A DNA stretch of 64,000 bases, from NCBI GenBank assembly GCA_044892505.1, contig CM097882.1, forward strand, positions 465,620,001 to 465,684,000. The letters are read 5' to 3'. The translations under genes and the position numbers were made by a program. Positions 35,731 through 64,000 of the stretch are shown here, in pieces. The first letter of the stretch is position 1. Every line of letters starts with the position of its first letter. The notes below the pieces were generated by a model. The model worked only from the letters and a program-made list of their open reading frames with translations, was not told where the DNA came from and made no database searches. The DNA comes from Schmidtea nova. Taxonomy: Eukaryota.

Positions 35731-38426
35731 TTCAATTTTATTGTTAACTTATCTTTTCAATTTAGTTAAATTTCGTATAATTCCACAAACAATTCAATAA
35801 GAATACCGTTCACAAATATTATTATTAATCTAAAATCAAATTGTTACAAAAAATTCAATTTAACAATTAACAATTTTAAACAACACAAAATTTTATATCG
35901 TTAATTTAATTTTATAATACATAAGTTTTTATCCTAAATTTAAGTTTTTAATATCACACATTTTATTTTTCTCTCTTAATTTTTCTTTCAATTTTTCTTT
36001 TAATTTTAATTTTTGTTTTCTTTACGATTTAGATTTATTGTTGTTCCTTAGGAAATTGACTCAAAATTTAAAGTCATTTCCTAAGTTACTAAATCACATA
36101 AGGTCAGGCGGAACAAAGATGACGCTCAGAGTATGATAATCTTGTTCAACAAAACATACAAGGACGTTATTTACAAGGACATAAAGTTGGTGCAGAGAGG
36201 AACCCGTTATGTAGTGAGTTGGAAGAAACGATTTTTAATGGATTTAACACCAACGCTTTTGTCGTTAAAAGATCAGAAATTCAAAGTCTTGTAACCCAGT
36301 TGCCTCTACAGTTTGATATTTTTTTGGATAAATTTAAAACTTTACAACACTGGGTTGATGGGTTTCTATTAAGGCGTGAAATGTCTTTAAGAAGGTCAAT
36401 AACATCATTTAAGTTAGATAATACAAAGGTATTATCATTTAATATCAGCTAATATCAGAAAATAGTGTATTTGTCAGAATTTTTGGAGAAGCGCTATACA
36501 GTTACCTAAGCAAAGAAATTTCAGTAAAAATGGCGAAATACGAGAAAGCTACAAATGAATTGCCAGTAAGTGTTGGCGGAAAACTACGATTTATGGAATC
36601 AATAACCCGAATACTTCTGGAAGAAAAAGTTAAACCGAAAATCTTACAATGTAATCGATTATTAGCCCCATTTTATCTTTTAGCACAAGATTGATGGATA
36701 TCGTTACCAGATTACCGAGGAGTGAAAACGGCAGACAAATTCGAATTGACAAATTTAGAATACTTAATAAATTTTACACCAATAAATAAAATGACACAAA
36801 TGGGTTTATATGCGAGCGAAGACATCGAAGAAGCACAAAAAATTTGTTATTTCCGTCAAAAAGGAATGTGTGATTTCAGAAATGATTGATACGATATTGC
36901 CGAATGGAGAAGAAAAAGTTAATTACGAATACTTGCAAACACCTGACCATTTTAAACGAGCTACTTACAAAACAATGGAAAAGATTTGGAGTAAATTTAT
37001 GTTTTTGGGACAAGCATGTGCAGGTCTAATTGGTATTTATGTAATTGTGGTAACCATAAAGGTAATAATATCACAAGTATTGTCCGCTCACAGGATAGAT
37101 ACAATTTCTGGATGGTCATGAAAAATGATTATTGGCTGTATTCCATTTTTGGCGAGATTCTTCATTACAAGTCATCACTACAAGGAAATGTCAAATGTTC
37201 GGGCGCAATTAAGAAATAATCAAAAAAGTAAAGAATCACTATGCGATCACGAGGATTAAAATAATGGCCATAATAACGAGAGCAATGCCGACAGATCAGA
37301 GCAGAAAATCTTTCGAAGGAGCATAATGAAAAGTAGAATAGAAACGAATCCAGGTTCTTGCTTGAACCAATGCCAAAATTAACCGGAATCGACACTCTTT
37401 CTCGATGGTACACACCGACATACGTACCAACAGCTCTAATATACCCAAGTGAAATATTGAGAGAATTGAAGCCAGTTGATGAGATAAAAGTCGAGTTAGA
37501 AAAGATTGAACCATCAAGTGCCGAAATTGAAATAAAGAACATGCTTGGGTTACCATGTAGTTACACATTAATGATAATAGAGTTAGGAGGAAAATAACCT
37601 AGAGTAGCCATATATTTTAATGAACGAAAAGTGAAAGCGTTATTGGACCCAGGTTCGAGTCACAGCATAGTATAGGAAAGTTTTTTTACGAAACATGGAA
37701 AAGCAAAAATAAAACCAACAACAAAAGTTATTAAATCAATGACGCATAACGTATTAAATAGTATTGGGAAATTGAAAGTCAAATTGAATATCGGAAATCA
37801 GGAAGTAACTCATTGGGTGTCAGTATTGAGAAAAAGACCTGGCATGGATTGGCATGGACATCATAGAACAATTACAAGGAATCTCACTTGACTTAAAGAC
37901 AGGAAAATTAATAAAAAGGCAGATGGGTGAAGTAGTACATGAAGTAGTAGAAGTCATTTTAAATCAAACATTGGAAGTATCACCAAAAAGTGAAGTAATA
38001 TACTACGCCAATGTAGAGAATGTTTCCGAAGACGAGTGCATATTTGAACCAAATCAAAAATTAATAGAAAATTACGACGTATCTATGTGTGACGAAATAG
38101 TGAAAATTAAAGACAAAATCGTGCCAGTAAGAATAGCTAATTGTAGCACAAAATCGATTCAGATGAAACCCAAAACAGTTGGGAAAACTGACGAAAATAA
38201 AAGAGGAAGAAGCACAAAAGCTACCTAGAAATATCAAGATCTATAAAGAACCTCAAGTAACAAGTGACGATTTAACGGATGTACAAAAACAAGAATTTGC
38301 TGCATATAGAAAAGGTATAAAAAAGCATTTGCGAAACATGAGTACGATATAGGACTCACTCAGATAATTGAACATGAAATACCATTGCTTGATGAAACCC
38401 CGATAAAAATACGACCGTATAGATTC

Positions 38427-38875
38427 TACTTCTCCCATCTGATCAAAGTTTTCTTGCGGAACTGGTATAGGATATGTGTCCTTTCTTGGTTTAATTTCCG
38501 ATAATCAACATAAAATTGTAATTCACCGTCCTTTTTCATTACTGCTATTGATGATAGGAATGGTGATGAACTATCTCTTATTATTTTAAATTTTTTCATT
38601 GCTTTAATTTGCCGATCGCTTTCCTCTTGATGTATATATGAAATTCTATACTATAGAATTTCATATATACATCAAGAGGAAAGCGATCGGCAAATTAAAG
38701 CAATGAAAAAATTTAAAATAATAAGAGATAGTTCATCACCATTCCTATCATCAATAGCAGTAATGAAAAAGGACGGTGAATTACAATTTTATGTTGATTA
38801 TCGGAAATAAAACCAAGAAAGGACACATATCCTATACCAGTTCCGCAAGAAAACTTTGATCAGATGGGAGAAGTA
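38427..38875. repeat. 449-bp near-perfect palindrome inside RT
   Basis: 224-bp arms centred on 38651, one mismatch seen. Confidence 0.95.
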
Positions 38876-41800
38876 CAATTCTTTACAGTAATTGATCTTA
38901 ACAAAGGATATAACCAATTTAAAATAAAAAAGGAGACAGGAGAAAAATTGCATTTTCAGATTGTAAAGGACTATATGAGTTTAATGTGCTAGCATTTGGT
39001 CTAACCGAAGCACCTGCTACGTTCCAGAGAGGTATAAATTTTGTTTTGCGTGATATACCGCATCCATTACTCTATAGCGATAATATTTTCAAATAGTTTT
39101 CAGGAGCACTTGAAAGATGTGGAAATAGAGTTTAAACTACTAATAGAAGCTAATCTCAAAATAAAACCTTCAAAATGTGAATGGGGAAAATTAGAAGTTG
39201 TTTATGTAGGAAATATTATTTCACGACGAGGGTCCAGAAAATGTAGAAAAGATTAAAAAATACCCAATGCCCAAAAATACGGATCAAGTCAGATAATTTC
39301 TGGAATTAGCTAGTTATTATAGAAAATTCATTAAAAATTTCTCGCATATCGCACAACCTTTAAATATATTGTTGAAAAAGCAGACCAAATTTAAATGGGC
39401 AACGACTCAACAAGAAGCATTTAATAAATTAAAAGAGAGTCTTATTTAACAACCAATATTAAAATGTCCAAACTTCAAAAACCCTTCATACTGATGACGG
39501 ATGCAAGCAATTTCGCATTATGAGCAGTTCTGGGACAGCAAGCAGAAGGCGAGATAGATCATGTAATCGCTTATGCCAGTCTTTCAATAAAACACAATGA
39601 AAAGAATTATTCCACTATTGAAAAAGAAACTTTAGCATTAGTATATGAGATAACTAATTTTTGACAATATTTGGTTGGGAGAAAGTTTATTGTATTTACG
39701 GATCATAACCCATTACAATGGCTAATGAAGCGTAGAGATTCAGCAAGTAAGTTAATCAGAGGGTCAATTGCGTTACAAGAATACGACTTTGAAATTAAGT
39801 ACCGGCCAGGGAAGTCGAACGCAAATGCGGATGCGATGTCGAGAATTCCTGAGGAAAATATTTTTAAAAATGAAATAAATTATGAAAATACCATATTTAT
39901 GGCAATTAAAACTACAAATAATATGAAAGAATTAGAGAAGGACCAAGAAAATGATGTTGGCGTAAATCAATTGCGTAAAAATGCCGTCAAAATAAAAAGG
40001 AAAAGTGACTGGAAGCACATTGCTCCAGAAAAATATAAATATGTTATCCACGATGGCTTGTTAAAATGTGTTAAAAATGAAAATTTATTAATTGTAGTAC
40101 CAACACAACGTCAGACAGTATTACTGTTGTTATATCATGATGGGAAATCACGAGGACATTTAACTGCTCGAAAACACTGTCAAGATTAAAACAGAAATAA
40201 TATTTGGATACGATGGAACACGATGTCAGACAGTAGTGTCTTACTTGTTAAGTGTGTCTAACCAGGAAGAAAAATAAAGGTTCCTCTGAAACCTATGCCC
40301 GTGCCACTAGCACTAATGGAAATGACAGCAATGGACATTGTCGATCCACTACCAGAAACAACTAATGTCAATAAATATATTATTGTTTTTTGTGACTATT
40401 TAACAAAATAGCCAAAAGCATATGCTATGCAAAATCAAAAAAGCGGAATCTGTGGCAAAAATATTTGTAGAAAACCTCATATTTCGGTACGGAGCACCAA
40501 GGAATTTGCTAACAGATCAAGGAACAGACTTTCAAAGCGAATTATATAAATCTATCACCGAATTATTTGGAATTCTAAAACTTAATACATCACCATATCA
40601 CACACAAACAGACGGTTTAGTCGAAAAATTCAATGGAACACTGATCAACATGATATCGTCGTATGTAAACAGAAAACAAAACGTTTAGGATTTGTTCATT
40701 ATACCATGTTTGTTTGCATATGGAAATGCAGTGAATGAAAGCACCGATGAAACACCCTTTTATCTTATGTACTTACGACGAAACAAAATGCCGATTGACT
40801 TAAATTTTCAACCGCCAATATCAAAAAAAAATGGACGTATCCGATTATAAAGTGGTAATGCAGGAAAGACTGCAATCAGTATGACCTTAAGCTGAACTTA
40901 AAATAAGGCATAACCAAGAAGCATATAAAGAATGCTACGACAAACGGGCACATGTACATGATATAAAGTTGGAGACTTGGTATACATAAATGAATCAGAG
41001 GCAGCGAAAGGACTGTCAACAAAGCTACTGCGACCATTTAAAGAGCCATATTTAGTTTGTGATGCAACAGAAACGAATTTAAAATTGCGCCCACAAAATA
41101 CTAAAAAAAAGCTGGAACGATTGCCATTCATGTAAATCGATGTATGAAAGTTACGGTGGAAGAACAGTATCCCCTGAGGTCAAAACCGAATAACGGTGAA
41201 AAAGAAAAAGTAATTTAATAAAAATTTACAAAAACACCACTCAATTAAAATTACTTGAGTAAAACGTTGCTGATTACAACAGTAATGATGATCAATGTTT
41301 TGTGTACCCATTATTAAAAAAGATCGATGTGTATTCAACATGTACCCAAATATTATGGATCTATCATTGCGAGAAATAGAAACTATTTCGAATACCACTA
41401 AAATTAAACTGTAACAAGAATATCCATGTCGCCCGTGAATTATCAATGGATTATAAATACCCTTGGGTAGTAACACAATTATAGTTTAAAGATAACCTGA
41501 CGAAACTCCATGATCTAATATGTGTCAATATATGGACAAAAAGGCTGCAAAATCGTGTATCAATTGAACCAGTATTCCATGAAATTAATGTACATTGGAA
41601 ATCTCATGAATCCCAGCAAGTAAAAACAGTCTTTCAAAATTATGCTATCGATACACTGAACAGCAGAAAACCATTTATAAATTATGTTAATTTAAAATTA
41701 TTTCAGATGTATAACATTCAAATAAAATATTTTGTAAAGTTTTTGTATGAAAGAGGAACTAAGAGTAACAATCAGTGGGTTCTAATCCATTCCAGTCAAC

Positions 41801-42722
41801 ACATGATACACTTGATCAATAAGACAAACAGAGTTATCTCTAATGTGTATAATCAGACGATAAAATGTTACCCGTCAAATGTACCCAAATAAAAGGGCTG
41901 TTCTATACTATTGTGGAAAAATACAAGCAATATTAGAAAAACAAAATGAATGACAGGTCTTATCTTTCCGACAACTACGATCAAAATCGTATTCTAAAAT
42001 TGTGCTAATAAAAATCAAATATTATCGACGAGCCAGATACTCTAATCTTTGGCAATTAACCTTAGTTGAGGACAAATTTGTGTTGGTATCATATACGGAA
42101 ATGGACAATTATTCACAGAAATTAAATCAATCAACTCGAATCACAAATAATAAAACTATATCATCCTCATTTACGGAAAATAAAATTCTACGTAACGTTG
42201 TTCATAAAAATTATCATTATAACAATATTTATCATTATTCTCATATCTTTTATCATCTACGAAATTCGAAAAACTGATAGACAGACTACGAATCAATCCG
42301 AGACTCGGATACCTTGGATCGATTATGACGAGACATTTGTATAGTGAGATACAATTATTTGCGTGCAATTACGGTATATTAATTGCGTAGCATCTAGTAA
42401 CATTTTCTTGTATCAATGTTTCATGTGAATCTGCTCTCTTCGAAATGGGAAAATTGGGAAATTGATTTAATTGGCTAATACTAAGAGTGAGGGGGTAGAA
42501 AAAAGGTCTAAAAAATTAAAAAGAGGGTATATAAGACAAACTTAAAAATCATAAAACTTAAAACAAATTTTAAAGAATTAAGAAAATTTTAAATTAAATC
42601 GGTAATTTTATATTTTTTTATTTATACCGCTACCGACTAAGACAGTATCTTTTAGGTACTCCGTCTTAGTCCTAGCGTCAAAATTAAATTAAATCAAATT
42701 TTAATTATAAACATTTAGAAAA

Positions 42723-43855
42723 ATGGAACAGCTACAATGGGCCAGGGAAACTTGCGGCAGTTACCTAAAGATGATGAAAAATCATGCCGGCCAAAGAAAA
42801 TTCCGGATGACCAACAACTTACAAATCCCAAATTACCTACGGTTGAATGATAGAAAATGAAAGTTCAATTATTCAACATCAACAGAATATCAAAATTCCA
42901 AATAACAAATGAATTAAAACTATCAAAAAAGGAAGAATACCCTATCCATGTAATCAGGGGTACGGTAGAAAAGCTAGATGAAAATGGACAAATATAGTGG
43001 GAGATCAAAAAACATTCTTCAAGCAAAATTAAGGATCCAGCAATTGGGAAAATATTACGAGTAGCAAACGAGGATGCCACAATTGTAGTGGAAACTAGAA
43101 TAAAAAACGAAATTGATGACGTACCCAGCAAGGTCCAATGTAGAAAGAAAATCATGAACTCTTAAAAATAACAAAGGAAATGTTGAAGAGAAAATTATCG
43201 TTTATTCGGAAGGAAATGGACATAGAAAAAATTCGCAGTAGGTTATTGTTCATTGATGTCGAAAATGGGAGCACTGATACATGAAAGATCATCCCCTTGG
43301 CGGTGGCCATTATGATCTATCATGGGGAAATTGTGAAAAATGTCTTCTTGACTCCTAGATGAAGACTCAAACATTTTAACTCAAACATCCATGGGATAAC
43401 GGAGGTGGCCAGCCGAAACGAAAATGACAAGTATATAGAAATGAAGGAGATTTAAAAACTGGCAATCGAAAAAATAATAGAAGGAGACGATTTACATGCA
43501 GAATTGCAATTCTTAGCAATATGGTTCAACCATCTTTTTGGCATTCAGGATCTAGCCACAGCTCAAGTTTTGCAATTGAAAGGAGTCATAAAAAGAGAAG
43601 TAACCATCAATGGGCAATGGTTCAAATTATCAATAGTATGCGACATAAAAATGCGAAAAGGAAAACATTCCGCATTGGAAGATACGGAATCAATTCGGAG
43701 AATTTACTTGGCTTTAGCAAGTCAATGGCAGGATGATGTGGAAAATGAGGAGACAGCCAGCAAAAGAAAATGTTCATTAGAAGATTACAGGAAGAGAAAA
43801 GCTCCAACAACCAGTGAGTTTATGAATGAACCAAAAGATAAAAGGAAATCTCTGT
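42723..43855 (+). pseudogene. Accessory ORF with DEDDh exonuclease domain (decayed)
   Basis: Frame from 43201: LLFIDVE (ExoI), VFLTPR*..HGIT, IIEGDDLHAEL, GIQDLA, GKHSALEDTESIRRIY (ExoIII); N-terminus NNLQIPNY resembles NQICIPND in ORF 53854-55953. Confidence 0.8.
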
Positions 43856-46742
43856 GCCGTTCGTCTGCGGATAATATGCAGTCGAACGCAGTCGTTTGAT
43901 GCCAAGCTGTTCGGATAAAGAGGTAAAAAGCTGTGATTCAAATTGCGCTCCTCTGTCGCTAATAATTTGTCTGGGAATGCCATATCGTGAAACCCATTCT
44001 GAAATGAAAGATTCAGCGACAATATTTGCTGAGACAGAACGTAGAGGAACAGCTTTACACCATCTTGTCTTCCTGTCTATAATTGTTAAAAGATACGAAA
44101 AACCATTGTTTGACCGACAAGATCAACGTGAACGGCATCAAATTAATTGCCTGTTGGAAAGTGCATGTGCGGTGGTTTAACGTGTCGAGTAATTTTGTCT
44201 GATTGGCATTTCAAACACTGACTATCTCGTCTCATAAAGGGCCAAACGACTTGGTTTCTTAGCAGCTGATAAGTGGCGGTCGAGCCAGGGTGACCTAAGT
44301 CGTGAACTGCACGGAATGCCTGTTTTCGAAGCTCGAATCCAAGAATAGGTCTAAGAGTTCCCGAAAGTGAAGAGTCTAAATCAATGCGGTCTACGTTTGA
44401 TTTATGGGGTTGAAAATATTGTAGATCAGCTTCGGTTGGTTTATTCTCGCAGAGTGGAACTAGTAAACAGGGGTTCCAAGGAGATAGCCTTGGCACTACG
44501 TTAGAGAAAATCAGCTAAAATGTTCTCTTTACCCGCTATGTGTCTGATGTCACTGGTGAACTCGGTAATGAAAGAAATTTGACGTAACTGCCTGGGAGAG
44601 TTATCCTTCATAGTTGTTAAATGAACCAACGGCTTGTGATCAGTGTAAACTGTAGTATATCTACCTCCGAGCAAATTTTTGAAATGTTTAATCGACAGAA
44701 ATATGGCTAAAAGTTCCCGAATGAACGCGGAATATTTGGTTTGAGTTTCGGTTAACTTCTTAGAAAAGAATTCACGAGGTCGAACTATACCATCTTGCAC
44801 CTGTGTTAACACAGCGCTTACTGCGACGTCGGACGCATCCGTGGTTAGACTGAAAGGCAGAGAATACTTTGGGTAAGCCAAAGTCTGAATTGATTCAAGT
44901 GCTTTTTTAGCTTCGATTTCTCTGTCCATTTTATAATATATCGCTTTGATCCCGAACTGTGCTAAGTCAAAGGAGCCAGAATATCAGATATCCTAGGTTT
45001 GAACCTGTGGCAATAATTGACTACGCCTAAAAAGCTGTGAAGCTGTGTGACAGTTTCCAGTTTAGAAAAATTTCTGATGGAATTTAAACGTTCAGTTTGT
45101 GGAGCTATTCCATCGGCGGATAAAGTGTGTCCCAGAAATTTTACACTTGATTGAAAGAATTGACATTTGGAATGATTTATCTTGAGTTGATGTTGCTCTA
45201 AGATTTTAACGAGTTTAGATAGATTCTGTTTATGTGTTTCGGCATCAGGCGATGCGACTAGGATGTCGTTGACGTAGGCTACTACATAATCTAGCCCGGA
45301 TAATATGTGATCGATATGTCGCTGGAATGTTTGTGCAGCGTTCCGTAAACCAAAAGGCATTCGCAGGAATTTGAAGAGACCTGTAGCAGTGATGACAGCT
45401 GTTTTTTGCATATCAGATGGAGCGACAGGAATTTGGTGGTATGCCTTCGTCAGATCGATCTTAGAAAATATTTTGTTACCTGTGAATCTGGCTAACGAAT
45501 CCTTTATAAGAGGCATTGAATATGAGTCGTGCTGTGTGACGGTATTTAAACGACGGTAGTCGCCACATATCCCGAAAGAAGAGTCTTTCTTAGGGACGAA
45601 ATGGATCGGAGAGGCCCAAGGTGAAGAAGATCTTTGGATCACTCCTGCTTGTAACAAATTATCATATTCTGTCTTCAGAAATGTCAAGTTTGCTCCGGAT
45701 ATCGGGCACACTCTCTCTATCTGAGTGGCGGTGAATTCAGAGTAAGGATTTGATGATAGAACCTTTGGTCTAAAGATCTTGTTGTATGAGTGAAGTTATC
45801 ATCGAAAATTCGATTAATGTTGAGTTTGTTAACAAAGTTCGTGAATAGATCGATAGAGAATGTATTGCATTCAGCAGTTTGATTAGAAGCGTCATTTAAA
45901 GACGTGGAATTAATATTGGGATCGATGACGGACAGTGAGCGTTTGTTGCAATCGATGATGATGTTAAAATTTTCAAAAAAGTCGATGCTCAGATCGATTC
46001 CCATTTCTGTAATTACACCCGATCTGACAAATGTGTGCGGAAACTCCTAACCTCTGATGATAATAACATATCCATGGAGTTTTATTACGTGTGTGGTCAC
46101 GCGACTGTGATCTCGGTCGCCTTCGGTCCGTTGATGTAGATCTTGCCTCAAGCTTCTGAACTTTTCTAGTGAGATTTTTGATTGCCGATATAAGAGGATT
46201 AAAAGAATGATCCGTAGAATTTTTAGTTTTCGTGGGTGTTGTTACTGAAATTTGGTTGCAGAAACCTGTATTTGGTTCTCGAGAAACCTCGGCTATTTTA
46301 TCAGCCATATTGGCGATATCGGCGAGTGAAGTCGAGTTGGAAACTGCTAAGATGGCTTGTGTTTGTTGAGGCAAGTCAGAAAGAAAAAAGCGACAAAGAA
46401 TAGCGTCATCTTGAGTGATGCCTTGCTGTAGCGATTCGAGGTTGTCTATGGCTTGCTTCAGGAATTCGGATGGTCGTTAGGAACTTAGGTGTTGAGTCTT
46501 GAAATATTTACAAAATATTTCTGCTTTTAGTTCCCTGAAGTTATTGATTATGGCATTTTTGAGGGAAGTAAAAGGATCAACTTCGGCAAAAAGGTTTGGT
46601 AAGAGATGCGCGAGTTAAGAAAGGAGTTCGATGGGGAGAAACGAGACAAGTTGGTCGAACTTTTGCTGTGAAGTCGCGATGTTTCTGGCGTGGAAGGATC
46701 GTTCAAAAATAAATAACCATGCGTTCGGTGATTCGTTTACAT

Positions 46743-47171
46743 CTAAAAAAATGGCTTGATGTTTAGGGTTGTAAAGATGTTGATACTCGTACTGTCTGCC
46801 GATGAAGTGAAAATGTGAGGATTTGGGGAATCAGGTGATAGGGGTGATAAGGTGGTGATGAGATCACTCTCATTCATGCCTCCACGTAATCTTAATGTCA
46901 CGTGTACAACTACTCCCGCCGGTAATACCTTGGCTAATGGTCCCTCATCGTTGGCTACGCTAAAACCTATGTGTGAGCAATAGAAGGTGTTTAATTTCAA
47001 GTGCAAAATGGAGCAAATGAAGCATTCTAAATCGTGCAAGGTTAGAGAAAGTGGAAACGTGCAAAATAAGTTGCGTGAGAAGTCTTGCATTAGTATAGTA
47101 GCCTTGGCGAGGACAGGAAAATAACGAGGCTCTTTCAGTAACACAGAAGGAGGTGGTGAAAGGACACGCAA
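46743..47171 (-). CDS. Ubiquitin-like domain ending LRLRGG fused to gag N-terminus
   Basis: About 74-aa Ub-length segment ending VVVHVTLRLRGG, then MNESDL...IKPFF; one extra T in the T7 run restores PFFLDVNESPNAW of gag. Confidence 0.8.
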   Translation of the reverse strand: MRVLSPPPSVLLKEPRYFPVLAKATILMQDFSRNLFCTFPLSLTLHDLECFICSILHLKLNTFYCSHIGFSVANDEGPLAKVLPAGVVVHVTLRLRGGMNESDLITTLSPLSPDSPNPHIFTSSADSTSINIFTTLNIKPFF

Positions 47172-47254
47172 AAGGAGGGGGAAATGTGGTGATAATTATT
47201 TTTTTAAAAATATAAATATAGAATTTTTTTAATATAAATAGATAATATAAATCA

Positions 47255-47273
47255 GATCCTGCTACTGACACCA
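47255..47273 (-). promoter_or_regulatory. Putative primer binding site (tRNA-Leu-like)
   Basis: TGGTGTCAGTAGCAGGATC one base after ...ACCACA; resembles the common TGGTGTCAGAAGTGGGAT PBS. Confidence 0.65.
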
Positions 47274-47274
47274 T

Positions 47275-47447
47275 TGTGGTATTTGCGTGGTTCGCCTCCA
47301 TTGCTAATTTTGTTTTTGTTATACGTCAATGCATTTGTTTGCCCCCGCAGGAAACAGGCATCAAGATTTCGAATTGCCGTCATAGCTTGTGGGTGAATTG
47401 CAAACAGCATTAAAGCCGTATTCTTTTTGTTAAACGTAATTGTAACA
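47275..47447 (-). repeat. Putative 5' LTR
   Basis: TGTTACA...ATACCACA bracket upstream of the PBS; no second LTR in window to confirm. Confidence 0.4.
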
Positions 47448-47496
47448 TTTACGTTAACCATCATGTTATTGTTTGCATTGATCCTTTCCTCGTTAT

Positions 47497-47707
47497 TTCG
47501 ACCGTGCATCATTAGAGAGTATATTAATCGCCTAACAATTGGACATTGTGCTTGTCTAAATCGTTTTGTTTGATAACGACCAGCAGACTGGGGAATTATT
47601 TTTGCATATTTTCCACTATAATTAATGCAATCTGCCATTGACAGATCGACAGCGCGAACATCATCAGTGCTCCATTTAATGAAAAGTTTAAAGTCAGGCA
47701 TATTCAC
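47497..47707 (-). pseudogene. RPS5: 40S ribosomal protein S5 (uS7) N-terminal fragment
   Basis: [47 protein letters not shown]; diverges after GRNN; substitutions at conserved positions. Confidence 0.92.
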
Positions 47708-53853: not shown

Positions 53854-55953
53854 TTAAATATCAAATGGATGTTGATATCCTGGTTGGTGCTTGGATTGAT
53901 TGTGCACTGGGTACTGATTGATATTGGGTTCTGTTTCTTTTTTAATATTGGTTGCATCGACAGGCTCTGCATAAATATTCACTCTGTATTTGTTGCCCCC
54001 CACACTATAATTTTCTGATAGGAGGAATGTATTGATGGGCTTACCTTCATCATCCAACATTCCTCCCCGGGCCGTCAAAGTAATGTCCTCATTTCCTTTG
54101 TCACACAATATTAAATCAATTCTTTTCTCTTTTATTTGAATTGTTGTTTTTCGAAATCCATTTTTTATCGCAAGGTTTATCGTCTCCTCGTGCTCAATTT
54201 GTCTTCCAAAATGAGTGCAGAGATCTTTTTCTGAGACATACTTTTTGTCTTTGTCTATTATGAAGTCTGATTCTTCTGGTTCTGTCCAGTCGGCTAACAT
54301 TTCAACTTTTGGTTCTGGTCCGATATCCTCTTCCATTATGTTGTATTTACTACTTGTTGATGGTTCTTCACTATCTTCTTCCATTTTGATGTCGTTACTG
54401 CTGGTTGAAGGTTCTTCTATGTTTTCATCTGCTGAGAAATATTCATCGTCTATATCACATTCGTCCATTCTTTCATATAGAATATTTTGAATTTTGGGTT
54501 CTGCTTTGATTTCCCTAGTTGGAGCGATAAGTGGTATTTCTTCTTTTATGATCATGAGTTCATCGTCGTCACTGTCCATGAGTTCTTCCATGAATGACTT
54601 TTTTGGTTTGTAATGATTGGTTTTTGTTAATTCCCCATGGGACGGCTCCATGCCTTCTCCATCTTCATATTTACTTTCTATCTCACCTTCTGCTTCGCTC
54701 TCTGTTTCGTTTTCGAATATTGCTTCTAGTTGTTCTTCTCCATTTACTTGTTTCCTTTTAAGAAGTGTTGCGGAATCCCATTTGACAACTTCTTCCCATT
54801 TATTTTCTGTGATATCGTAGATCACTTTTAATAACATTGTGGTGATCTTTGTTGAGAATGGTTCTGGTTGTCTCAATATATCATTTAACTTTTTATCTTT
54901 ATGCCAACTTTTATGGTAATTGATTACCTGGTAAGCCAAATTTGATATTTTTATTTTTGGTGGGGCCACGTTTTTTACAAAAGAACACATAAATCGATCC
55001 TGTGCCATTTCTCTTATGCCCATAATGTTGTCCAGATCTATCGTCAATAGTTTTAACTTATCTATGATGTTGAATCCAACTATGATCTTTCCATAGAGAA
55101 TGTTTCGAATTTCATTTAAGGCTTTATATTCGTCTTCATTTCCAATTATGTTTTCTTTTGTAGCTTTAGTTTTTTCCGTGTAGAATTTTTCTACTTTCGT
55201 TCTTGGGGTGATGAATTTGTTATACAGAATTGCTCCTTTTCTGCTTCTGATACAAATTTCCACTGGTCTGAGATTTTTGTTTATATCTTGAATTACTTTT
55301 ATATCCACCATTACAGTTAATGAATGCCTTTCTTCTGTCGTTAACTCTTGATTCGTGAATGATATCTTCTGATTGATCATATCTTCATTTATTTGTAGGA
55401 TTGAATGTATTGGGTTTAATTTTATGAACGGATTTGGGATTGTCGGGATATATAGCACTTCGATTGCTATCACACATGGTAGGTTGTTCATCTGCACTGT
55501 CAACTCATTGAAATCGTTTGACATGCTTCTGTCTTTTCTTATTAACTTGATAACTGCTGAACAGTTGCTTGTGACAATTAACGGGATTTTATTTTGACAT
55601 ATTGCAACTTCTGTTTTTGTCATGTGGAATATTAGTCTGTGAGGGATTCTCTGGTTTTTTGCAACTTCTTTGTCGACGTTTTGGTATTTGTCGAAGGTTC
55701 CAATAAGCTCCCTGAGTTTCACTCTTCGGGCCTCATTGAATTTTATCAGATGCATTTCCCGTTCTTCTATTTCGACTTTCATGTCGTTTGGGATACATAT
55801 TTGATTTGGGAAACTGCGAATTGTAATTGGGGTTCCATCCGTACATATCTTGTTCTGTAGATTTTTGTAAAAACTCATGTTTAGTTTGTTTATAAAACAA
55901 GTATATTTCTGGTAGGTTCTTGGTTGATTGAAATGAGGTTGATTTTGATTCAT
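53854..55953 (-). CDS. 699-aa accessory protein with REX4/ISG20-like (DEDDh-fold) pseudo-exonuclease and acidic region
   Basis: Residues about 212-385: VMVDIK..RPVEICIRSRKGAILYNKFITPRTKVEKFYTEKT..IRNILYGKIIVGFNIIDKLKLL..IREMA; catalytic residues mostly lost. Confidence 0.75.
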   Translation of the reverse strand: MNQNQPHFNQPRTYQKYTCFINKLNMSFYKNLQNKICTDGTPITIRSFPNQICIPNDMKVEIEEREMHLIKFNEARRVKLRELIGTFDKYQNVDKEVAKNQRIPHRLIFHMTKTEVAICQNKIPLIVTSNCSAVIKLIRKDRSMSNDFNELTVQMNNLPCVIAIEVLYIPTIPNPFIKLNPIHSILQINEDMINQKISFTNQELTTEERHSLTVMVDIKVIQDINKNLRPVEICIRSRKGAILYNKFITPRTKVEKFYTEKTKATKENIIGNEDEYKALNEIRNILYGKIIVGFNIIDKLKLLTIDLDNIMGIREMAQDRFMCSFVKNVAPPKIKISNLAYQVINYHKSWHKDKKLNDILRQPEPFSTKITTMLLKVIYDITENKWEEVVKWDSATLLKRKQVNGEEQLEAIFENETESEAEGEIESKYEDGEGMEPSHGELTKTNHYKPKKSFMEELMDSDDDELMIIKEEIPLIAPTREIKAEPKIQNILYERMDECDIDDEYFSADENIEEPSTSSNDIKMEEDSEEPSTSSKYNIMEEDIGPEPKVEMLADWTEPEESDFIIDKDKKYVSEKDLCTHFGRQIEHEETINLAIKNGFRKTTIQIKEKRIDLILCDKGNEDITLTARGGMLDDEGKPINTFLLSENYSVGGNKYRVNIYAEPVDATNIKKETEPNINQYPVHNQSKHQPGYQHPFDI

Positions 55954-56415: not shown

Positions 56416-59400
56416 TTATACCAATGTGGATTTTGTATATTCACCTGGTATATATTTGCCCAAATGGAAATGCCCTGGTACATTTCTGACCAGTCGGCTC
56501 CGATACCGCTGCCTTTTCCATTTGTACTTTTTGTAAATTTGTACGCTAGTTATTAAAGCTAAAACTGCTAATGCTATTATTGATGTTGTGATGACATAAT
56601 AAGGCCAATGTGGCTTTTTATCCTCTTTACGAAATGCTTGTAGTTCCTCTAAGTTATGTATCACTATTGGTCTTCCTTGCCTTATTTTGATAGGTTCTTG
56701 TTTTTGTTTTTTGGCATTGTATTGTTTTTGGAATTTGGCTATTCCAGTGCTTGTTGGTATTTCGTTTGTAAGTGGTGTGGTATTTAGTATATTATCTGAT
56801 GTCGTTGTTGTGCTTTTTATTCTATCGAGTGTTTTTGTTATGTTATGGTTTTTTGTTATATTCTTGGGTAATTGTTCTGTTTTTATTTTTTTGCATCTCC
56901 ATGTTGTTGTATCTGTGTTTCTCTGTATGCAGATTTTGTATATTGTATTAGGTGTTAGTTTTGTGAAATTAATATAGTTTCCTCTTTCGATTTCGTTGGT
57001 TATTCTGTCGTCTTTTCCTTTTATCATCTTTGGGTTTTTCCCATTCGTTGTTTGCATGTATAAATCAATTACTCCTCTATTTATGATAAATGCTCTAACT
57101 TCGTTTGTTGATATTTTTATTAATACTTTGTCAAATTCTATTGTTTCGGTTGAGCCAACAAATGTTATGATTGTTAAGAAGATAGCCGATATTATTAGTT
57201 TGTTATGAGATCTTAGATTATACTTGTGGGGTTTATCTATCGTGACCTCGGCTTCCGCCAACTTGCATCTGTTGACATGTACTACTATTGGATCCTCGTT
57301 TTTATGCTTTTGTAAGTGTAAATTCTCATTTATTACTTTTACTACCTCATATGGACCTTTATATGGTCTTGCTAGTTTTGTTGTCTTTCCCTTTCCTACT
57401 TGTGGTGACATAAGTCTAACCTTATCACCTACTTTAAAGTTGTGTGGTTTACTATTTTTGTCGTAGTCGGCTTTGTACTGTTCTTGTCTATATTTGACTT
57501 TTAGATTGGCTACTTTATACACTTCTTGCAGTTTTTCCTGCATTAGTGTGACATAATCTGGTGCATCTAAATATTGTGATACTCGAGGTTCAAATATTGT
57601 ATCTATTGGTGTTGCTGGTTCTCTTAAAAACATTAAATAATACGGTGAATACCCTGTTGTTTCGTTTGGAGTGATATTATGAATGTATGTGCATTGACTT
57701 ATGTATTCGTCCCAATCATTTTGATTTTTTCCTACAAAAACAGCTAGTCTGCTTAGTAATGTCCCATTAAATCTTTCTACTAGTCCATCAGTTTGAGGGT
57801 GATACGCTGTTGTGTTGATCTTTTGCATGTTAAAAATATTAGCTACTCGTTTTATTAATTCACTAGTAAAATTTGTTCCTTTATCTGTTAATAATCTTTT
57901 GGGTGTGCCTATCTTGAAAATAATTTTTTCTATAAGCAATTTAGCAACTGTTTCTGCTGTTTCGTCTTTTGTTGGAAATGCTTCTGCCCATCTAGTAAAA
58001 TAATCACTAAATACTAGTATATGTTTATTCCCATTAATTGTAGTAGGTAATTTACATAGAAAATCCATTGCACATAGTTCCATTGGTGATGTCGTTGCTG
58101 GAATGGGATGTAACGGCGCTTTTGTTTTTGTACCTGTATTTTTTCTTGTTGCACATATTGTACACGCGTTACACCATCTCTTAACATCTTTCTTTAATTC
58201 TTCCCAGTAATATTTTTGTAATAATCTACTTGCTGTTTTTCTAGATGATAAGTGACCTCCTAATGCTCCATCGTGATATTGTAGTAGGAGTATTTGTCTT
58301 AATTTCTGAGGTACTACTATTAGTTGCTTACCATTGAAATCTTCTATTACTACTAATTTCTTTGATATTTTATACTTTGAATTGTTTTCTTTTCTGATTT
58401 CATTTTTTATTTTACTGATCTCTGGGTCTTTCATCTGTTCCTCATATATATCGATTGGTTTTTCTGCTACTAGTGCAAATATTTCAAGTGCTCCTAATTC
58501 TGGTATTCTTGATAGTGCATCTGCGTTTTTATTTATTCTACCTGGTTTATATATAATTTTTAGGTGCATGTCTTGTATTTTCATTGCCCATTTAAGTAAT
58601 CTACTTGATGTATCTTTATGTTTCCATAAGCCTTCTAATGGTTTATGGTCAGTTCTTATTATCACTTCAGTCCCATATATGTATGGTTTGAATTGTTTTA
58701 GGGCGAATACTATTGCGTAACATTCTTTTTCTATTGTTGAATACCTCAGCTGTGCTCCTTTTAATGTTTTACTGGCATATGCTATTACGTAATCTTTCCC
58801 TTTTTCTTCTTCTTGGCCTAAGACTGCTCCTACGGCTTTCCCGCTGGCATCCGTCATTACTATAAACTGTTTTTCAAAATCTGGGTATCTTAACACTGGT
58901 GCTGTTATCAATCTTTCTTTTAGTTTATTGAATGCTTCTTGATGTTCCTTTGTCCACTTCTTTTGTATCTTGTTAACTTTGCTGTTCATTTCTTGTACTA
59001 TTAACACATTTTTGCATTCTCCTTTTGTTCTAATTCCCTTTGTCAGTTCTATTATCGGTGATGCTATCTTTGCATAATCTTGTATGAATTTACGATAGTA
59101 CCCTGTTAGACCTAAAAACCCTTGTACTTGTTGTACTGTTTTTGGTATTGGGAATTTCTTTACAACTTCTATTTTTTCTGGATTTGGTTTTATCCCTTCT
59201 ACTGTAACTATATGCCCTAGAAATAACGCCGAAGGTTCTGCCCATTTACACTTAGTTGGTTTAATTTTAATTTTTGCTTTTCTTAGTCTCTCGAGTACAT
59301 TTGTTATATCTTTTAAGTGTTCCTCAAATGTTTTTGATGATATTAGTATATCATCCATGTAAACTGCGCAATGTTGTACATTTACTAATATTGTGTTCAT

Positions 59401-60705
59401 TAGGCGCTGAAATGTAGCTGGTGCGTTAGTTAACCCGAAAGGTAATCGTGTATACTCATATAAACCATCCTCGATAACAAATGCTGTTTTTTCCGCATCC
59501 CCTTCCTCCATTTGAATTTGCATATATCCCTTATTTGCGTCAATAACTGAAAAATACTTAGCATCCCTAAGTTTATCGTATTGCTCTTGTGCTTTTGGGA
59601 ATGGGTATGAATCTTTTACTGTTACATCATTTAATTTACGATAGTCAATGCACATTCTTATTTCTCCGTCTTTCTTTTTAACGGGTACAATGGGTGATGC
59701 CCACTGTGAAAAACTCTGTTTTATTACACCTGCATCGTTTAGTTCTTTGATTTGTCGTTTTATTTCCTCTCTTAACTTGTATGGTACGCTGTATGGTCTT
59801 TGTTTTATTGGTCTCGCATTACCTGTATCTATTACATGTTTGATTATATCGGTATCCCCTAGATCAAATTCGTGTTTTGCAAAAACATCACTATATTTAT
59901 CTATCAATGTTTGTAGTTGTGCTTGTTGTGTTATTGTTAAGTATTCATTATTAATTTTCACTTTGTCATATGATTTTATATTATTTATCTTACTAGGTTC
60001 GACTACTCCCTTGCCGTTATTATTCATCACGCTTATCTCACTGACTTCGTACGTTTTTTCTAATTCACCTTTGAATAATTTTCCCAATTTCGTACCTTTG
60101 TGTATTTTAACATTACTTTTTTCATAATTTGCTATTCTCAATGGTATTATTCCCTTTCTCGGAATTACGCATTCATTGATTAGCATTATATTCTGATTTT
60201 GTATAATTGCCGTTTCTGGCTCAAAAATAAAAGTGTCCTCACTTTTGATGTTAACTTTTAAGGGAATTATATGATCGCATTCATATTCCAATTCAAATGC
60301 TTCTAATGCAACAACTTCTGTGAACTTGGATTTATGTTTAATTGCTTTTCTCTTTATCGTATTATCTGTTAAATCTATAATGCAATTTTCTAACTTGTTG
60401 AGTATATCGATTCCCAATATACATATGCTATTACATTCTTGCACCACTTTAAATATGTGGTTTATTACATGTTCTGGTGTTTCGACAATTAGTTCTATGT
60501 CTCCCTTTAGTGGAATACGATGTGCTGATAACGATACTACTTTATCCGTTGTGCTCATAATATTTCTTTTTTGATCATCTGTCAGTTGATCTTCTCTAAT
60601 TAAGGATGTTGCTTCTCCTGTATCTACTAATGCATTTATGATTATATTGTTTATAATTATTCTAAGTCTTGGTCTTGCTTCGTTTGCTGCATCTAATCGT
60701 TCCAT
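56416..60705 (-). CDS. pol: Pol polyprotein PR-RT-RNase H-IN plus C-terminal type I membrane protein
   Basis: ALVDTGEA, QWASPIV, CIDYRKLN, LPFGLTNAPATFQR, YMDDILI, MTDASG, HDGALGGH..CxxC, AMDF, TDKGTNF, QTDGLVER, YKGPY; last 261 aa carry two hydrophobic segments. Confidence 0.95.
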   Translation of the reverse strand: MERLDAANEARPRLRIIINNIIINALVDTGEATSLIREDQLTDDQKRNIMSTTDKVVSLSAHRIPLKGDIELIVETPEHVINHIFKVVQECNSICILGIDILNKLENCIIDLTDNTIKRKAIKHKSKFTEVVALEAFELEYECDHIIPLKVNIKSEDTFIFEPETAIIQNQNIMLINECVIPRKGIIPLRIANYEKSNVKIHKGTKLGKLFKGELEKTYEVSEISVMNNNGKGVVEPSKINNIKSYDKVKINNEYLTITQQAQLQTLIDKYSDVFAKHEFDLGDTDIIKHVIDTGNARPIKQRPYSVPYKLREEIKRQIKELNDAGVIKQSFSQWASPIVPVKKKDGEIRMCIDYRKLNDVTVKDSYPFPKAQEQYDKLRDAKYFSVIDANKGYMQIQMEEGDAEKTAFVIEDGLYEYTRLPFGLTNAPATFQRLMNTILVNVQHCAVYMDDILISSKTFEEHLKDITNVLERLRKAKIKIKPTKCKWAEPSALFLGHIVTVEGIKPNPEKIEVVKKFPIPKTVQQVQGFLGLTGYYRKFIQDYAKIASPIIELTKGIRTKGECKNVLIVQEMNSKVNKIQKKWTKEHQEAFNKLKERLITAPVLRYPDFEKQFIVMTDASGKAVGAVLGQEEEKGKDYVIAYASKTLKGAQLRYSTIEKECYAIVFALKQFKPYIYGTEVIIRTDHKPLEGLWKHKDTSSRLLKWAMKIQDMHLKIIYKPGRINKNADALSRIPELGALEIFALVAEKPIDIYEEQMKDPEISKIKNEIRKENNSKYKISKKLVVIEDFNGKQLIVVPQKLRQILLLQYHDGALGGHLSSRKTASRLLQKYYWEELKKDVKRWCNACTICATRKNTGTKTKAPLHPIPATTSPMELCAMDFLCKLPTTINGNKHILVFSDYFTRWAEAFPTKDETAETVAKLLIEKIIFKIGTPKRLLTDKGTNFTSELIKRVANIFNMQKINTTAYHPQTDGLVERFNGTLLSRLAVFVGKNQNDWDEYISQCTYIHNITPNETTGYSPYYLMFLREPATPIDTIFEPRVSQYLDAPDYVTLMQEKLQEVYKVANLKVKYRQEQYKADYDKNSKPHNFKVGDKVRLMSPQVGKGKTTKLARPYKGPYEVVKVINENLHLQKHKNEDPIVVHVNRCKLAEAEVTIDKPHKYNLRSHNKLIISAIFLTIITFVGSTETIEFDKVLIKISTNEVRAFIINRGVIDLYMQTTNGKNPKMIKGKDDRITNEIERGNYINFTKLTPNTIYKICIQRNTDTTTWRCKKIKTEQLPKNITKNHNITKTLDRIKSTTTTSDNILNTTPLTNEIPTSTGIAKFQKQYNAKKQKQEPIKIRQGRPIVIHNLEELQAFRKEDKKPHWPYYVITTSIIALAVLALITSVQIYKKYKWKRQRYRSRLVRNVPGHFHLGKYIPGEYTKSTLV

Positions 60706-60981
60706 TGTTTCGACTTCTAAGCTATAACAACCATATATCTTTTTAGGTTCACAATGACAATTCTTGTTTTCTCTAGGAATTTTGATTTCTATATTTTCTT
60801 GTAGCTCTTTTAGTTGTTCTCTTTGGTTTTCATATAGTCCTTGTTGTGGTACATTTCCTTCATGTGATATATGCGCTTTAATTATTTCCTCATCGTTTTC
60901 ATCATCTACCAGTAATTGCCTTTCTTCATTCCTTTGGACTTTTATTAAACGTATTTCCTTGTCGTGTTTCGCCGTAATAAG

Positions 60982-62763
60982 TTATTTAGCTATAAATGGG
61001 CACAAACATGCTAATAATTTATATGAATTTCCAAATACTTGTTTTAGCTGTCTCAGTGATACTAGAGAAGAACATATCATTTTTAGTAATGCAACCGTAT
61101 AATATATACCTAAGATTGTAGAAAACATGTTTCCAAGGACTACAAAGTATCCCCATATGCTATATAGTACTTTATATGCTACTTTTTTGAAGTATTCTTT
61201 TGATAATAACACATCAAAGTTGTAATTTCCTCCGTAACTTCCTTCGATAACTCTGTTAACCATTATTGAAAGTACTCTTTCTTTTTCGTTTGGAAATAGC
61301 ATGTGTTTTCTTGCACTTTCTATAGCTTCTCTCGTATATATACCATTACTGTCCATATCGTTGATTTCTTTAAACTCTAATCTTTTTTCTAGCTCTATGA
61401 GTTCTAATTTGAATGGTTTCATTGCCTCTTTTCTATCTGACATAGATATCCACATTTCGTCATTTATTTTGTATAATGGGTCTAATAGGTTAGTGCATTT
61501 TTCTATTTTTCTCGGTATATATGTTTTTTCTGTTAATATTCTAGTAATTGGTTGAAGGTATACCCTTTCTCCTTTATATATTACCGGTAATTCATTAGTG
61601 CACTGATTATTTGTTGCTAACGATACACTAACAGGTTTACATTGAAATGTCTGTATCACTTCTCCTACTATCCTTGCAAATGTTCCTTCTTCTGAGAAGA
61701 TTATTGGTGCCATTAAATCTGGGTTTGTTACCGCCACTGCCATTTTTGTCCTCAATATTTCTCTGTTGAGTTTGCAATCGCTCATAATTGTTGATTGATA
61801 TACTTTGTCTAATTGTACTAGTTGGTTATGATAGAAAAAATCGATTTTATTGTTGAAGTATGATGCAAGTTTGACGTCGAATTTATTTACTTTTTGTTTT
61901 GCATCTTTGACTTCCTCTTTGCTTATGTATATCCCTTCATAATTAGTTTGTATTATTTCCTTACCACATTTTACACTTTTCCTTTTACTAACAAACCTCA
62001 TTGCTTCGTTTTCAGATTCTGACATAAATATTGTTGGTGTATCTTTTTCTTGTACAATTGTTGTTTTCCTTTTTTGATCTCTCACCCTTTTTGAGTCTAC
62101 TTCTGTGAACTGTTTTCCTTTGATTTCCCTAAATTTTAATGATTTTAATTTTGTTAACTGACAATCGTATTTATCTATTTTATATATTAGCATTGATTCT
62201 CCTGTATCGCAATAAGATTCTTCTAATGTACAAAATTTGTATATCATCATTTTCTTTGAGCTGCTGTCGAATGATGCTTTGAACTTTCTCAGTTCTACCA
62301 TGTAGTGTCTCCTTACTACAACATTACTCAGTTTTTCGCCCCATATTGTATATTCTCCTCCTTCACAATATCCTCCTTTTGATGTCCATCCCACGACATT
62401 TATATCTTGTCTCATTTTTGCTCCTATCCTTGCTTCTAGTTCTATTCCTTTATGACCGCTATATTTTACTTTCTTTGTTTTAAATGCATATTCACACTCT
62501 ATTGGCGACAATATTACTGCTTCGGGTGTCCACGTAGGTTTTAACACTGTTCTTGCCCCAACATGACATATATATGCTTCCTCCTGATACTTTACTATGC
62601 ACTCTTTAGCCTCTGTATGAATAAAGTCTGATTCTTGATAAACATGGAATATTTGAGGCTCTGACATGATTAATTTAGTTGGATTTGCTTCAGGGCAATT
62701 TTCAACATCCAACAGTGTGTATTTTTGTCCCCACTTTGGATTTTGACAATCATATGCTACCAT
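60982..62763 (-). CDS. env: Envelope glycoprotein, chuvirus/Jingchuvirales-like (class III fusion candidate)
   Basis: N-terminal AYDC, LLDV..C, Cys-rich ectodomain, GEVIQTFQC..V..CTNELPV..G..YLQPITRIL, C-terminal hydrophobic helices. Confidence 0.8.
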   Translation of the reverse strand: MVAYDCQNPKWGQKYTLLDVENCPEANPTKLIMSEPQIFHVYQESDFIHTEAKECIVKYQEEAYICHVGARTVLKPTWTPEAVILSPIECEYAFKTKKVKYSGHKGIELEARIGAKMRQDINVVGWTSKGGYCEGGEYTIWGEKLSNVVVRRHYMVELRKFKASFDSSSKKMMIYKFCTLEESYCDTGESMLIYKIDKYDCQLTKLKSLKFREIKGKQFTEVDSKRVRDQKRKTTIVQEKDTPTIFMSESENEAMRFVSKRKSVKCGKEIIQTNYEGIYISKEEVKDAKQKVNKFDVKLASYFNNKIDFFYHNQLVQLDKVYQSTIMSDCKLNREILRTKMAVAVTNPDLMAPIIFSEEGTFARIVGEVIQTFQCKPVSVSLATNNQCTNELPVIYKGERVYLQPITRILTEKTYIPRKIEKCTNLLDPLYKINDEMWISMSDRKEAMKPFKLELIELEKRLEFKEINDMDSNGIYTREAIESARKHMLFPNEKERVLSIMVNRVIEGSYGGNYNFDVLLSKEYFKKVAYKVLYSIWGYFVVLGNMFSTILGIYYTVALLKMICSSLVSLRQLKQVFGNSYKLLACLCPFIAK

Positions 62764-63920
62764 TGCATTGCCCCCTTGATTAAATCTAATAACAAAGTGA
62801 TTATGACTATTACTATGGAGGTTATCGATTTACTCTCTGTCTTTGGTTTTACTGTTGCTCTCTTTATTAATTGTTTTATTACATTATCTGTATCACTCTC
62901 TTTATTCGTCGTATCTTTATCATATAATACTTTCCATCCTCCTTTCTTTTTTATCCATGGTATTGCCTCTACTTTCAATCTTTTAAACATCATTGTTGCT
63001 ACTTTTTCTAATTGCTCTTTTGGATTTTCCTTTATGAGCTTTTTATATCTTGCGGCCAAGTATGCCATGGCCGTTATTATTTTATCTTTATCTATCCCTG
63101 TATTAAACAGGATTTTTAACACTGTTTTTTCATTTGCTTCCTCTGTAGCTAGTTCTTTAGTATCCTTTTTAATTAACATCATCCTTTCAGTTATATTTTC
63201 AATAAGTACTGTTGGCTTTGTTTCTGGAAATAGCTTAATATTCATTGCTTTTATTACTTCTTTTATTTTGTTTACGTCATTATTATCGTCTTGATACTCT
63301 GGTTGTTCATGTTTATGTTGATTTGCAATCTCTCTTAATCGTTCTGCTGTCTTCCTATTCTCCGATTTTTCTATTATTTCTGATTTTCGAGGTCTTCCTC
63401 TACCTCGTTTTGATGTTTCTGCATCTTTTGTTTTTGCTTCCTCAGCTATTCTTTCTATTGTTTCTTGTAAGTTACTATACTTTTCATCTATAGGTTTAAA
63501 TAAAATTTCTTCATCCATTACTGATTTCTTTGTTTCGCTAGGTGATTTATCCCATAGCCTAAATAATCTATCAAAATCGTTTTCTTCATTTATACTCAGC
63601 TCAACCGACGGTACTGGCGTCACTATTTCATCGATCATTTGTTTTTCTACTGTGGCTACCACAATATTATCACTTACTGGGTTTATCCCATAATCGATTA
63701 AGTACTCATCACTTAATAATTCTATTCCGTTAAAATATAATTTTATTACATCTTTCTCTCCTATGGTTCCTGGCCATTTGGCTCTTACCATTCGTTTTAA
63801 TTTGCTCACTTTAGTGCAAGGATGCATCTTTTGTTTAATACTAAAAAAATAATTATCATTTGATTCAATCGTTACATTTAGTGTTTCATGCAATTTTTCA
63901 TTTTTTCTTATATTCTCCAT
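62757..63920 (-). CDS. Ubl, AT-hook, Bcl-2-like domain and hydrophobic tail (probably the N-terminal part of the polyprotein)
   Basis: IKLYFNGIELLSDEYLIDYGI (Ubl), KRGRGRPRK, LFNTGIDKDKII...PWIKKKGGW (BH1/BH2 spacing), SITSIVIVIITLLLDL. Confidence 0.75.
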   Translation of the reverse strand: MENIRKNEKLHETLNVTIESNDNYFFSIKQKMHPCTKVSKLKRMVRAKWPGTIGEKDVIKLYFNGIELLSDEYLIDYGINPVSDNIVVATVEKQMIDEIVTPVPSVELSINEENDFDRLFRLWDKSPSETKKSVMDEEILFKPIDEKYSNLQETIERIAEEAKTKDAETSKRGRGRPRKSEIIEKSENRKTAERLREIANQHKHEQPEYQDDNNDVNKIKEVIKAMNIKLFPETKPTVLIENITERMMLIKKDTKELATEEANEKTVLKILFNTGIDKDKIITAMAYLAARYKKLIKENPKEQLEKVATMMFKRLKVEAIPWIKKKGGWKVLYDKDTTNKESDTDNVIKQLIKRATVKPKTESKSITSIVIVIITLLLDLIKGAMQW

Positions 63921-64000
63921 AACATTTCAACATCTCTTTTATTTCTATTTCTAATTCAAATACTCTCGTTACATTTTGTCTCTTTACCATCATTGGTAAT

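Follow-up and report, generated by a model that had tools for sequence, protein, structure and literature searches.

An accessory REX4/ISG20-type exonuclease gene of Burro-like enveloped gypsy elements in Schmidtea nova and its broken, chimeric copy

The locus and its surroundings

The analyzed stretch of Schmidtea nova DNA (assembly GCA_044892505.1, contig CM097882.1, forward-strand positions 465,620,001 to 465,684,000; 64,000 nucleotides, here termed the window) harbors the remains of an enveloped gypsy element on its plus strand and a second, Burro-like element on its minus strand (Table 1). The original prediction had placed a DEDDh exonuclease within an enveloped gypsy at this site, and the carrier was recognized correctly, as env and pol lie beside the nuclease. 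The flagged element lacks its 5′ end and is cut on the left at 36437. Its env part shares 88.5% DNA identity with family A, one of the nuclease families described below, and the family A ORF scores PF24664 with an E-value of 9e-63. On the right, a gypsy pol remnant on the minus strand, starting at ~43856, truncates the flagged gene.

Table 1. Features of the flagged element and of the second element in the window.
Feature	Position	Strand	Basis or remark
Env-like gene, 3′ part (Monjiviricetes-type fusion glycoprotein), broken	36437..37160	+	tblastn against the second element's intact env
Decayed pol: protease, RT, RNase H, integrase, C-terminal tail	37160..42277	+	
5′ part of flagged ORF, broken: cupin/AlkB-like double-stranded beta-helix domain and linker	42723..43152	+	family A comparison, sister-copy fold
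DEDDh/DEEDh exonuclease domain, broken	43153..43750	+	motif reading, ISG20L2 match
Catalytic positions of flagged copy	ExoI D 43255 and E 43261; ExoII E 43501; ExoIII H 43666 and D 43681	+	
Recombination junction, 7-base common stretch	43591..43597	+	family A left, family C right
Family C-derived segment with ExoIII (HSALED)	43598..43846	+	family C comparison
Open ORF, 699 aa from first Met, same two-domain protein	53854..55953	-	second Burro-like element in the window
Second element frames: Bcl-2-like, env (PF24664), pol	56416..63926	-	order Bcl-2, env, PR, RT, RH, IN as in Burro

The pol of the flagged element contains an inverted duplication of 228 bases (38423-38879, 99%, 1 base between the arms). 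Decayed gypsy pol remnants occupy 43820-46476 and 47932-49623 on the minus strand, the former being interrupted within integrase at its border with the flagged gene, and a further gypsy element (23320-27943) is bounded by a direct repeat of 167 bases (99%) and has its pol at 25012-27692. Translation reading labels a putative Tc1/mariner-like transposase piece (32755-33387, plus strand), a putative hAT-like transposase piece (50772-51938, minus strand), and a putative prenyltransferase-beta-like exon (35239-35748, minus strand). The short frames at 46743-47710 (minus strand) putatively represent the C-terminal end of ubiquitin and a piece of ribosomal protein S5; a similar S5-like stretch is found in locus L041. 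An inverted repeat pair of 739 bases (21545-22283 and 34173-34911, 99% complementary, 11.9 kb apart) includes partly masked bases.

A decayed copy joined from two families

The exact words IDVE (43252) and HSALED (43666) share one plus-strand frame, and each occurs once among the six frames of the window. They are separated by three in-frame stops (43282, 43360, and 43453). With the stops read as X, the frame aligns with human ISG20L2 in the PDB (residues 26-196, E 3.5e-5), and PolC and ISG20 are weaker matches. Since the ISG20L2 alignment spans ExoI to ExoIII, the resemblance to DEDDh enzymes is above chance. The ExoII position (43501) is taken by a Glu, without an Asp. Upstream, the gene begins with an ATG at 42723, and frameshifts and stops are spread across its first 430 bases, a part with 83-90% DNA identity to family A copies in which the conserved His and Glu of the family are still legible. 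The flagged copy is a dead pseudogene, and its three in-frame stops exclude 3′ to 5′ exonuclease activity.

The flagged copy is additionally a chimera of two families. The stretch 36437-43597 resembles family A (82-89% DNA identity) and 43591-43846 resembles family C (86-89%), the two being joined a few codons out of register. IDVE (ExoI) and ExoII therefore come from family A and HSALED (ExoIII) from family C. With 43150-43900 as query, the alignments of the best 39 further genomic matches all end near 43597; with 43560-43830, they all start at or past 43590. The fetched loci resemble either the 5′ half (82-89%) or the 3′ part (87-90%), never both. A spread family of chimeras was rejected, as no second copy with the same junction occurs among 40 scored of 187 candidates. 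An assembly artefact at the junction is unlikely. Contigs from public DNA runs, which belong to a single study and possibly to the source sample, are identical to the window at 43190-43390 and 43385-43627, cover the three stops, and cross the junction, reaching 37 and 30 letters past its two edges, borderline against a 31-letter rule. No RNA run is listed among the public holders, a result without bearing on expression. The stops, and probably also the junction, are therefore real in the DNA. The predicted retention of the catalytic motifs thus holds in that both words are real and in one frame, but they are separated by three stops, come from two families, and stand beside an ExoII Glu; in a chimeric pseudogene, retained motifs are uninformative on activity.

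The gene in sister elements

The nuclease gene is an accessory gene of Burro-like enveloped gypsy elements, an assignment that is made by element layout, with Burro1-4 compared by description only. In two LTR-dated copies, it is an ORF of its own that lies past pol and before the 3′ LTR. The family A copy measures 17.2 kb between its LTRs (LTR identity 99.3%) and matches Retrotrans_gag, zf-CCHC, Bcl-2 (weakly), Monjiviricetes fusion protein, protease, RT, RNase H, and integrase in Pfam. Its env and pol share a single frame, and the nuclease ORF of 482 aa lies ~400 bases past pol. The family D copy (L174) spans 16.1 kb from LTR to LTR (LTR identity 99.9%), with zf-CCHC, PF24664, and protease in a single frame, gag-env-protease being continuous. 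The Bcl-2-like domain before env scores PF00452 with E 0.001 in family A and 2e-6 in the second element of the window, both below the curated cut-off. AT-rich spacers precede the nuclease ORF, and a TTTTAG-like stretch at the end of several of them is too weak for a splice-site call.

Structure and motif of the nuclease domain

The open sister ORFs almost certainly carry a domain of the ISG20/REX4 fold, which agrees with the type proposed in the original prediction. The open family A protein matches ISG20L2 (E 1e-7), ISG20 (E 3e-6), PolC, and SDN1, and a ten-sequence family profile matches ISG20L2 (7e-18), ISG20 (2e-15), SDN1 (2e-8), and PAN2 (1e-4). The model of a sister copy, with a pLDDT mostly of 83-95 in the nuclease domain, superimposes on ISG20 with a Z of 18.8 and an rmsd of 2.1 over 159 aligned residues, 3 Z units above the next chain. 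The C-terminal 140 residues of the sister protein are predicted to be disordered. In the ESM Atlas, the best cluster scores 0.90 and has PF00929 in 59% of its members, and it reveals no further domain besides the nuclease.

A proposed check against PF00929 gives a divided answer. The flagged copy has no match in the Pfam scan and neither does family A, family B stays just short (23 bits, cut-off 24), and families C (26.7) and D (29.8) exceed the cut-off, as do the metagenome relatives L143 (37) and L139 (45.6). Pfam alone would thus leave the flagged copy without a DEDD match, a result that is overturned by the phmmer, profile, and structure searches. A genome search with PF00929 yields 33 matches above the cut-off; 28 of the 30 that were fetched are copies of family C or D, one is the host ERI1, and one is unplaced; the host REX4-like gene is not recovered by this search. 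The host ERI1-like DEDDh gene (L091, 1159-2346, minus strand) is a single open frame of 395 codons.

DEEDh is the motif of the family, and versions with a dead catalytic site are also kept in young, high-copy families. After alignment of 148 own-genome hits, with 32 partial ones set aside and some places counted twice, 99 of the 116 full-length rows read D-E-E-H-D, 88 of them without a stop. An Asp at ExoII is found in none of the 116 full rows, the families A-D of this genome having Glu there; outside relatives, P0005, L139, and L143 among them, keep the Asp. DEEDh is the active motif of coronavirus ExoN, in which E and D are reported to alternate (PMC7654266). Nuclease activity of the open sister copies is predicted and quite probable.

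The N-terminal domain

Residues 1-130 of the sister protein form a double-stranded beta-helix in a confident model (pLDDT 90). Its best fold matches are tied between a cupin (Z 9.2), ALKBH1 (9.1), ALKBH6 (8.8), and vaccinia C16 (8.6), so that the fold class is clear and the family assignment is not. Matches in a viral fold library are limited to weak ones with cupins and AlkB-like proteins. Among 50 aligned proteins with a mean identity of 16%, 49 carry His76 and Glu124, dead versions included. The HxD/E...H iron-binding triad is not seen in this 50-protein alignment, which is read by column and not in 3D and has a single conserved His column.

Dead and tandem versions

The open ORF of the second element belongs to the same protein family (hhalign probability 99.1%, E 6e-19, 314 columns). 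Its motif state is D-K-K-F-T, four of the five catalytic residues being lost. The Bcl-2-like, env, and pol frames of this element are nearly intact, and the tail at the end of its pol contains a hydrophobic stretch. The dead-only family is young and abundant, with more than 60 copies at 97-100% identity among the 150 scored, and a fuller copy contains no second, active ORF before its 3′ LTR. Catalysis is therefore dispensable in at least one lineage.

The nuclease also occurs in 16 metagenome loci, namely 13 of element type, which come from two dataset prefixes and perhaps from one kind of animal, and three cellular REX4-like genes. In L139 (5629-8732) and L143 (5565-8624), a dead paralogue is followed by a canonical DEDDh paralogue after pol. 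The full order is RNase H and integrase, then an extended tail, in which Pfam finds ankyrin repeats for L139, and lastly the dead and the active version. L140 is a repeat of L139. Downstream of integrase, L139 matches aspartic protease a second time, and an additional ORF (9267-9878) in it weakly resembles ubiquitin. The short contigs of the other ten element-type loci show neither RT nor RNase H nor integrase. A wide profile search returns 60 proteins at E 1e-30 or better in DEDDh, DEEDh, and dead states; for the 16 element-type proteins that were looked up, we infer an element context. The dead versions group together in the tree (SH-aLRT 94) on long branches, which may be an artefact.

Copy number, selection, and origin

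A protein search of the genome gives 2298 first-look candidates. Within the best 150, which alone were scored and are biased toward young copies, 116 have no stop in the domain. There are at least four nuclease families (A-D), with 54-75% identity in the domain among the compared pairs. The sister nuclease is under purifying selection, the pairwise dN/dS of its domain being 0.07 between two A lineages and 0.06 between C and D, where dS is near saturation. The values are 0.22-0.26 in the N-terminal domain, 0.28-0.35 in the C-terminal tail, and 0.02-0.03 in RT, RNase H, and integrase; env was left out of the comparison, as its region was covered only in part. The nuclease domain is thus less constrained than the three pol domains, and between families A and B it is 74% identical in amino acids, compared to 90-96% in RT/RNase H/integrase.

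The host has a REX4-like gene with introns, which was found with a fungal REX4 query. In a tree of 119 rows, left after 57 of 176 were removed (fragments, duplicates, repeats, and thinning of the cellular set), the element-type proteins form one group with a support of 0.996, and the host gene falls outside. An IQ-TREE analysis of 66 rows separates 43 element-type from 23 cellular rows with an SH-aLRT of 94, just below the threshold. The host gene sits among the cellular REX4 rows and not with the element proteins, so the comparison with host genes called for in the original prediction sets the element group apart. A cellular REX4 orthologue was rejected as an identity for the element proteins, which do not group with the host gene or with other REX4 genes. 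Hence, the element nuclease is not a recent copy of host REX4, as judged from trees built without ISG20, AEN, REXO1, SDN, and PAN2 and rooted on the distant ERI1. The DEEDh-rich group leaves the canonical DEDDh forms outside, a branching that suggests a single old capture, followed by an Asp-to-Glu change and some returns. A small RNase H-integrase tree, set beside the nuclease tree, has an unresolved branching.

Function

We tentatively favor a putative counter-defense RNase as the main role of the nuclease, at somewhat less than an even chance. The ORF would be read from its own (sub-genomic) RNA, and the ExoII Glu would support a two-metal catalysis as in nidovirus ExoN. The enzyme would degrade single-stranded RNA from 3′ ends that lack protection, with by-products of the element, slicer fragments, or small-RNA guides as candidate substrates. 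Removal of exposed RNA may in turn lower the piRNA/RNAi and RIG-I-like responses to the element, and the N-terminal domain could provide substrate or partner selectivity. The roles suggested in the original prediction, decay of small RNAs or of immunostimulatory RNA, are likewise putative. The arenavirus NP is a viral DEDDh enzyme that destroys immunostimulatory RNA. In planarians, PIWI silencing of Burro (PMC8532177) and a RIG-I-like response to dsRNA (PMC8797187) are reported. ISG20-type enzymes are described as favoring ssRNA (PMC9157404), which makes the clearing of long dsRNA a poor fit.

The core may instead be noncatalytic, serving as an RNA-binding scaffold or decoy in the manner of the dead DEDD folds Maelstrom, EXD1, and Exuperantia, with a working N-terminal domain and an optional nuclease. 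The dead versions persist as open ORFs in a family that is young and rich in copies, as well as in numerous outside relatives, they form one tree group (SH-aLRT 94), His76 and Glu124 persist in them, and the tandem pairs of L139 and L143 imply distinct jobs for dead and active paralogues. The unity of the dead group is possibly a long-branch artefact, however, and in most families the five catalytic residues are complete and strongly constrained. We consider this reading rather unlikely. A slightly lower probability is given to a role in the replication cycle, in which the enzyme would trim the 3′ ends of genomic RNA, primer, or RNase H fragments, or would proofread, and so aid the copying of a 16-30 kb genome. 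Replication roles were proposed for the bdelloid DEDDy ORFs (PMC5408684) and for the DEDDh nuclease of KolobokD (PMC9587614), and the DEEDh ExoN of nidoviruses is reported to accompany large genomes. Here, however, the ORF lies outside the gag-env-pol polyprotein and has no built-in route into the particle, the closest folds are RNA-processing enzymes rather than polymerase proofreaders, and the dead-only family replicates well.

An elaborated anti-defense scheme, which is more of a long shot than either of these, envisages an ancient two-part module of Burro-like proviruses. The His-Glu site of its non-canonical AlkB/cupin-fold domain would recognize modified or protein-bound RNA, for which m6A-marked transcripts and PIWI-bound guides may be examples, and would feed it to the ISG20-like exonuclease; the dead paralogues would serve as decoys or regulators. 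The idea of a built-in reader derives from ISG20 itself, which a reader protein can reportedly guide to RNA with m6A marks (PMC9157404). If the scheme were true, an antiviral-type RNase would have been turned against host RNA surveillance. More improbable still is a restriction role resembling that of ISG20, in which the nuclease and the Bcl-2-like domain would together make up a mutualistic kit and the nuclease would either help the host cell or keep rival RNA viruses and elements out. The nearest solved relatives are the antiviral ISG20 and ISG20L2, and Burro1 is reported to aid stem-cell survival via an anti-apoptotic domain (PMC13465017); yet every examined copy lies inside an element, and the tree, built without ISG20, gives no ranking of ISG20 over REX4 closeness. 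That the gene is a functionless hitch-hiker, a recently captured fragment of host REX4, is barely credible. The flagged copy is indeed a decayed pseudogene, but the dN/dS of 0.06-0.07 with synonymous sites near saturation between families, the grouping of the host REX4-like gene with cellular REX4 rows, and the same two-domain fusion in distant elements all speak against a passenger.

Burro-like elements reach a large size and high abundance and reportedly influence the survival of stem cells, which gives the question a relevance beyond a single locus. To our knowledge, encoded RNA-silencing suppressors are rarely known for animal LTR elements. A strongly selected accessory RNase would offer a direct handle on how an element persists amid PIWI and dsRNA defenses, and natural active, dead, and tandem versions of the nuclease are available for comparison.

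Comparison with known systems

The nuclease family is a real accessory gene that is probably undescribed. No report of a REX4/ISG20-type ORF in gypsy or Burro was found in a search that missed key Burro papers, so that prior annotation is possible. The Burro elements, giant gypsy elements of dugesiid planarians, are described with env in frame between gag and pol, and no exonuclease is named in that description of Burro (PMC6431247). With Burro/GYPSM1 the elements share a Gag with CCHC knuckles, a Bcl-2-like domain, and a mononegavirus-type env between gag and pol (PMC6431247), as well as the ankyrin tail in the metagenome relative L139. At 16.1-17.2 kb, the families described here are smaller than Burro (~30 kb), and the MATH, BIR, and Smc domains, a Burro trait, are absent from their Pfam scans. 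They are hence Burro-like and not Burro1 itself.

Transposon-borne DEDD nucleases are reported in two other settings. The bdelloid Juno/Vesta LTR elements and Terminons carry a DEDDy ORF3 that is RNase D-like and whose motif reads DEED (PMC5408684). The parallel acquisition envisaged in the original prediction is supported, the element nuclease being independent of the bdelloid ORFs, which group with RNase D/WRN-type enzymes (PMC5408684). Both nucleases are encoded by a separate ORF after pol in a gypsy-like element, and both have a changed motif. In bdelloids, however, the DEDDy ORF replaces env, whereas env and nuclease coexist here, and no cupin-like domain is reported for ORF3 in that account (PMC5408684), unlike in the present protein. 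KolobokD likewise carries a DEDDh accessory exonuclease, but on a DNA transposon, and its enzyme is described as resembling TREX, Exuperantia, and ERI1 rather than REX4/ISG20 (PMC9587614). For the N-terminal domain, the closest parallel is an orchid gypsy whose AlkB (2-ODD) accessory ORF is reported to keep its cofactor residues and to demethylate m6A (PMC9289625). It too is an extra double-stranded beta-helix ORF in a large gypsy element, whereas the domain described here has one conserved His in place of the HxD...H triad and is fused to a nuclease.

With the cellular enzymes ISG20, ISG20L2, and REX4, the element nuclease shares its fold, motif spacing, HGI and GHDL segments, and general-base His. 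It differs from ISG20/REX4 in the ExoII Glu of the families of this genome and in the N-terminal double-stranded beta-helix domain, and from REX4 by an identity of only ~30% and a clade apart from the sampled REX4 rows. Nidovirus ExoN is a virus-borne DEDDh enzyme that also has a Glu at motif II, but the fold match to it is distant (Z 9.8-10.0 compared to 18.8 for ISG20), and the element nuclease is without zinc fingers. The two Glu residues are convergent, with no kinship by transfer as far as tested. The family thereby constitutes a third, independent case of a transposon DEDD nuclease, and its Asp-to-Glu change is one that bdelloid elements and nidoviruses are reported to have in common.
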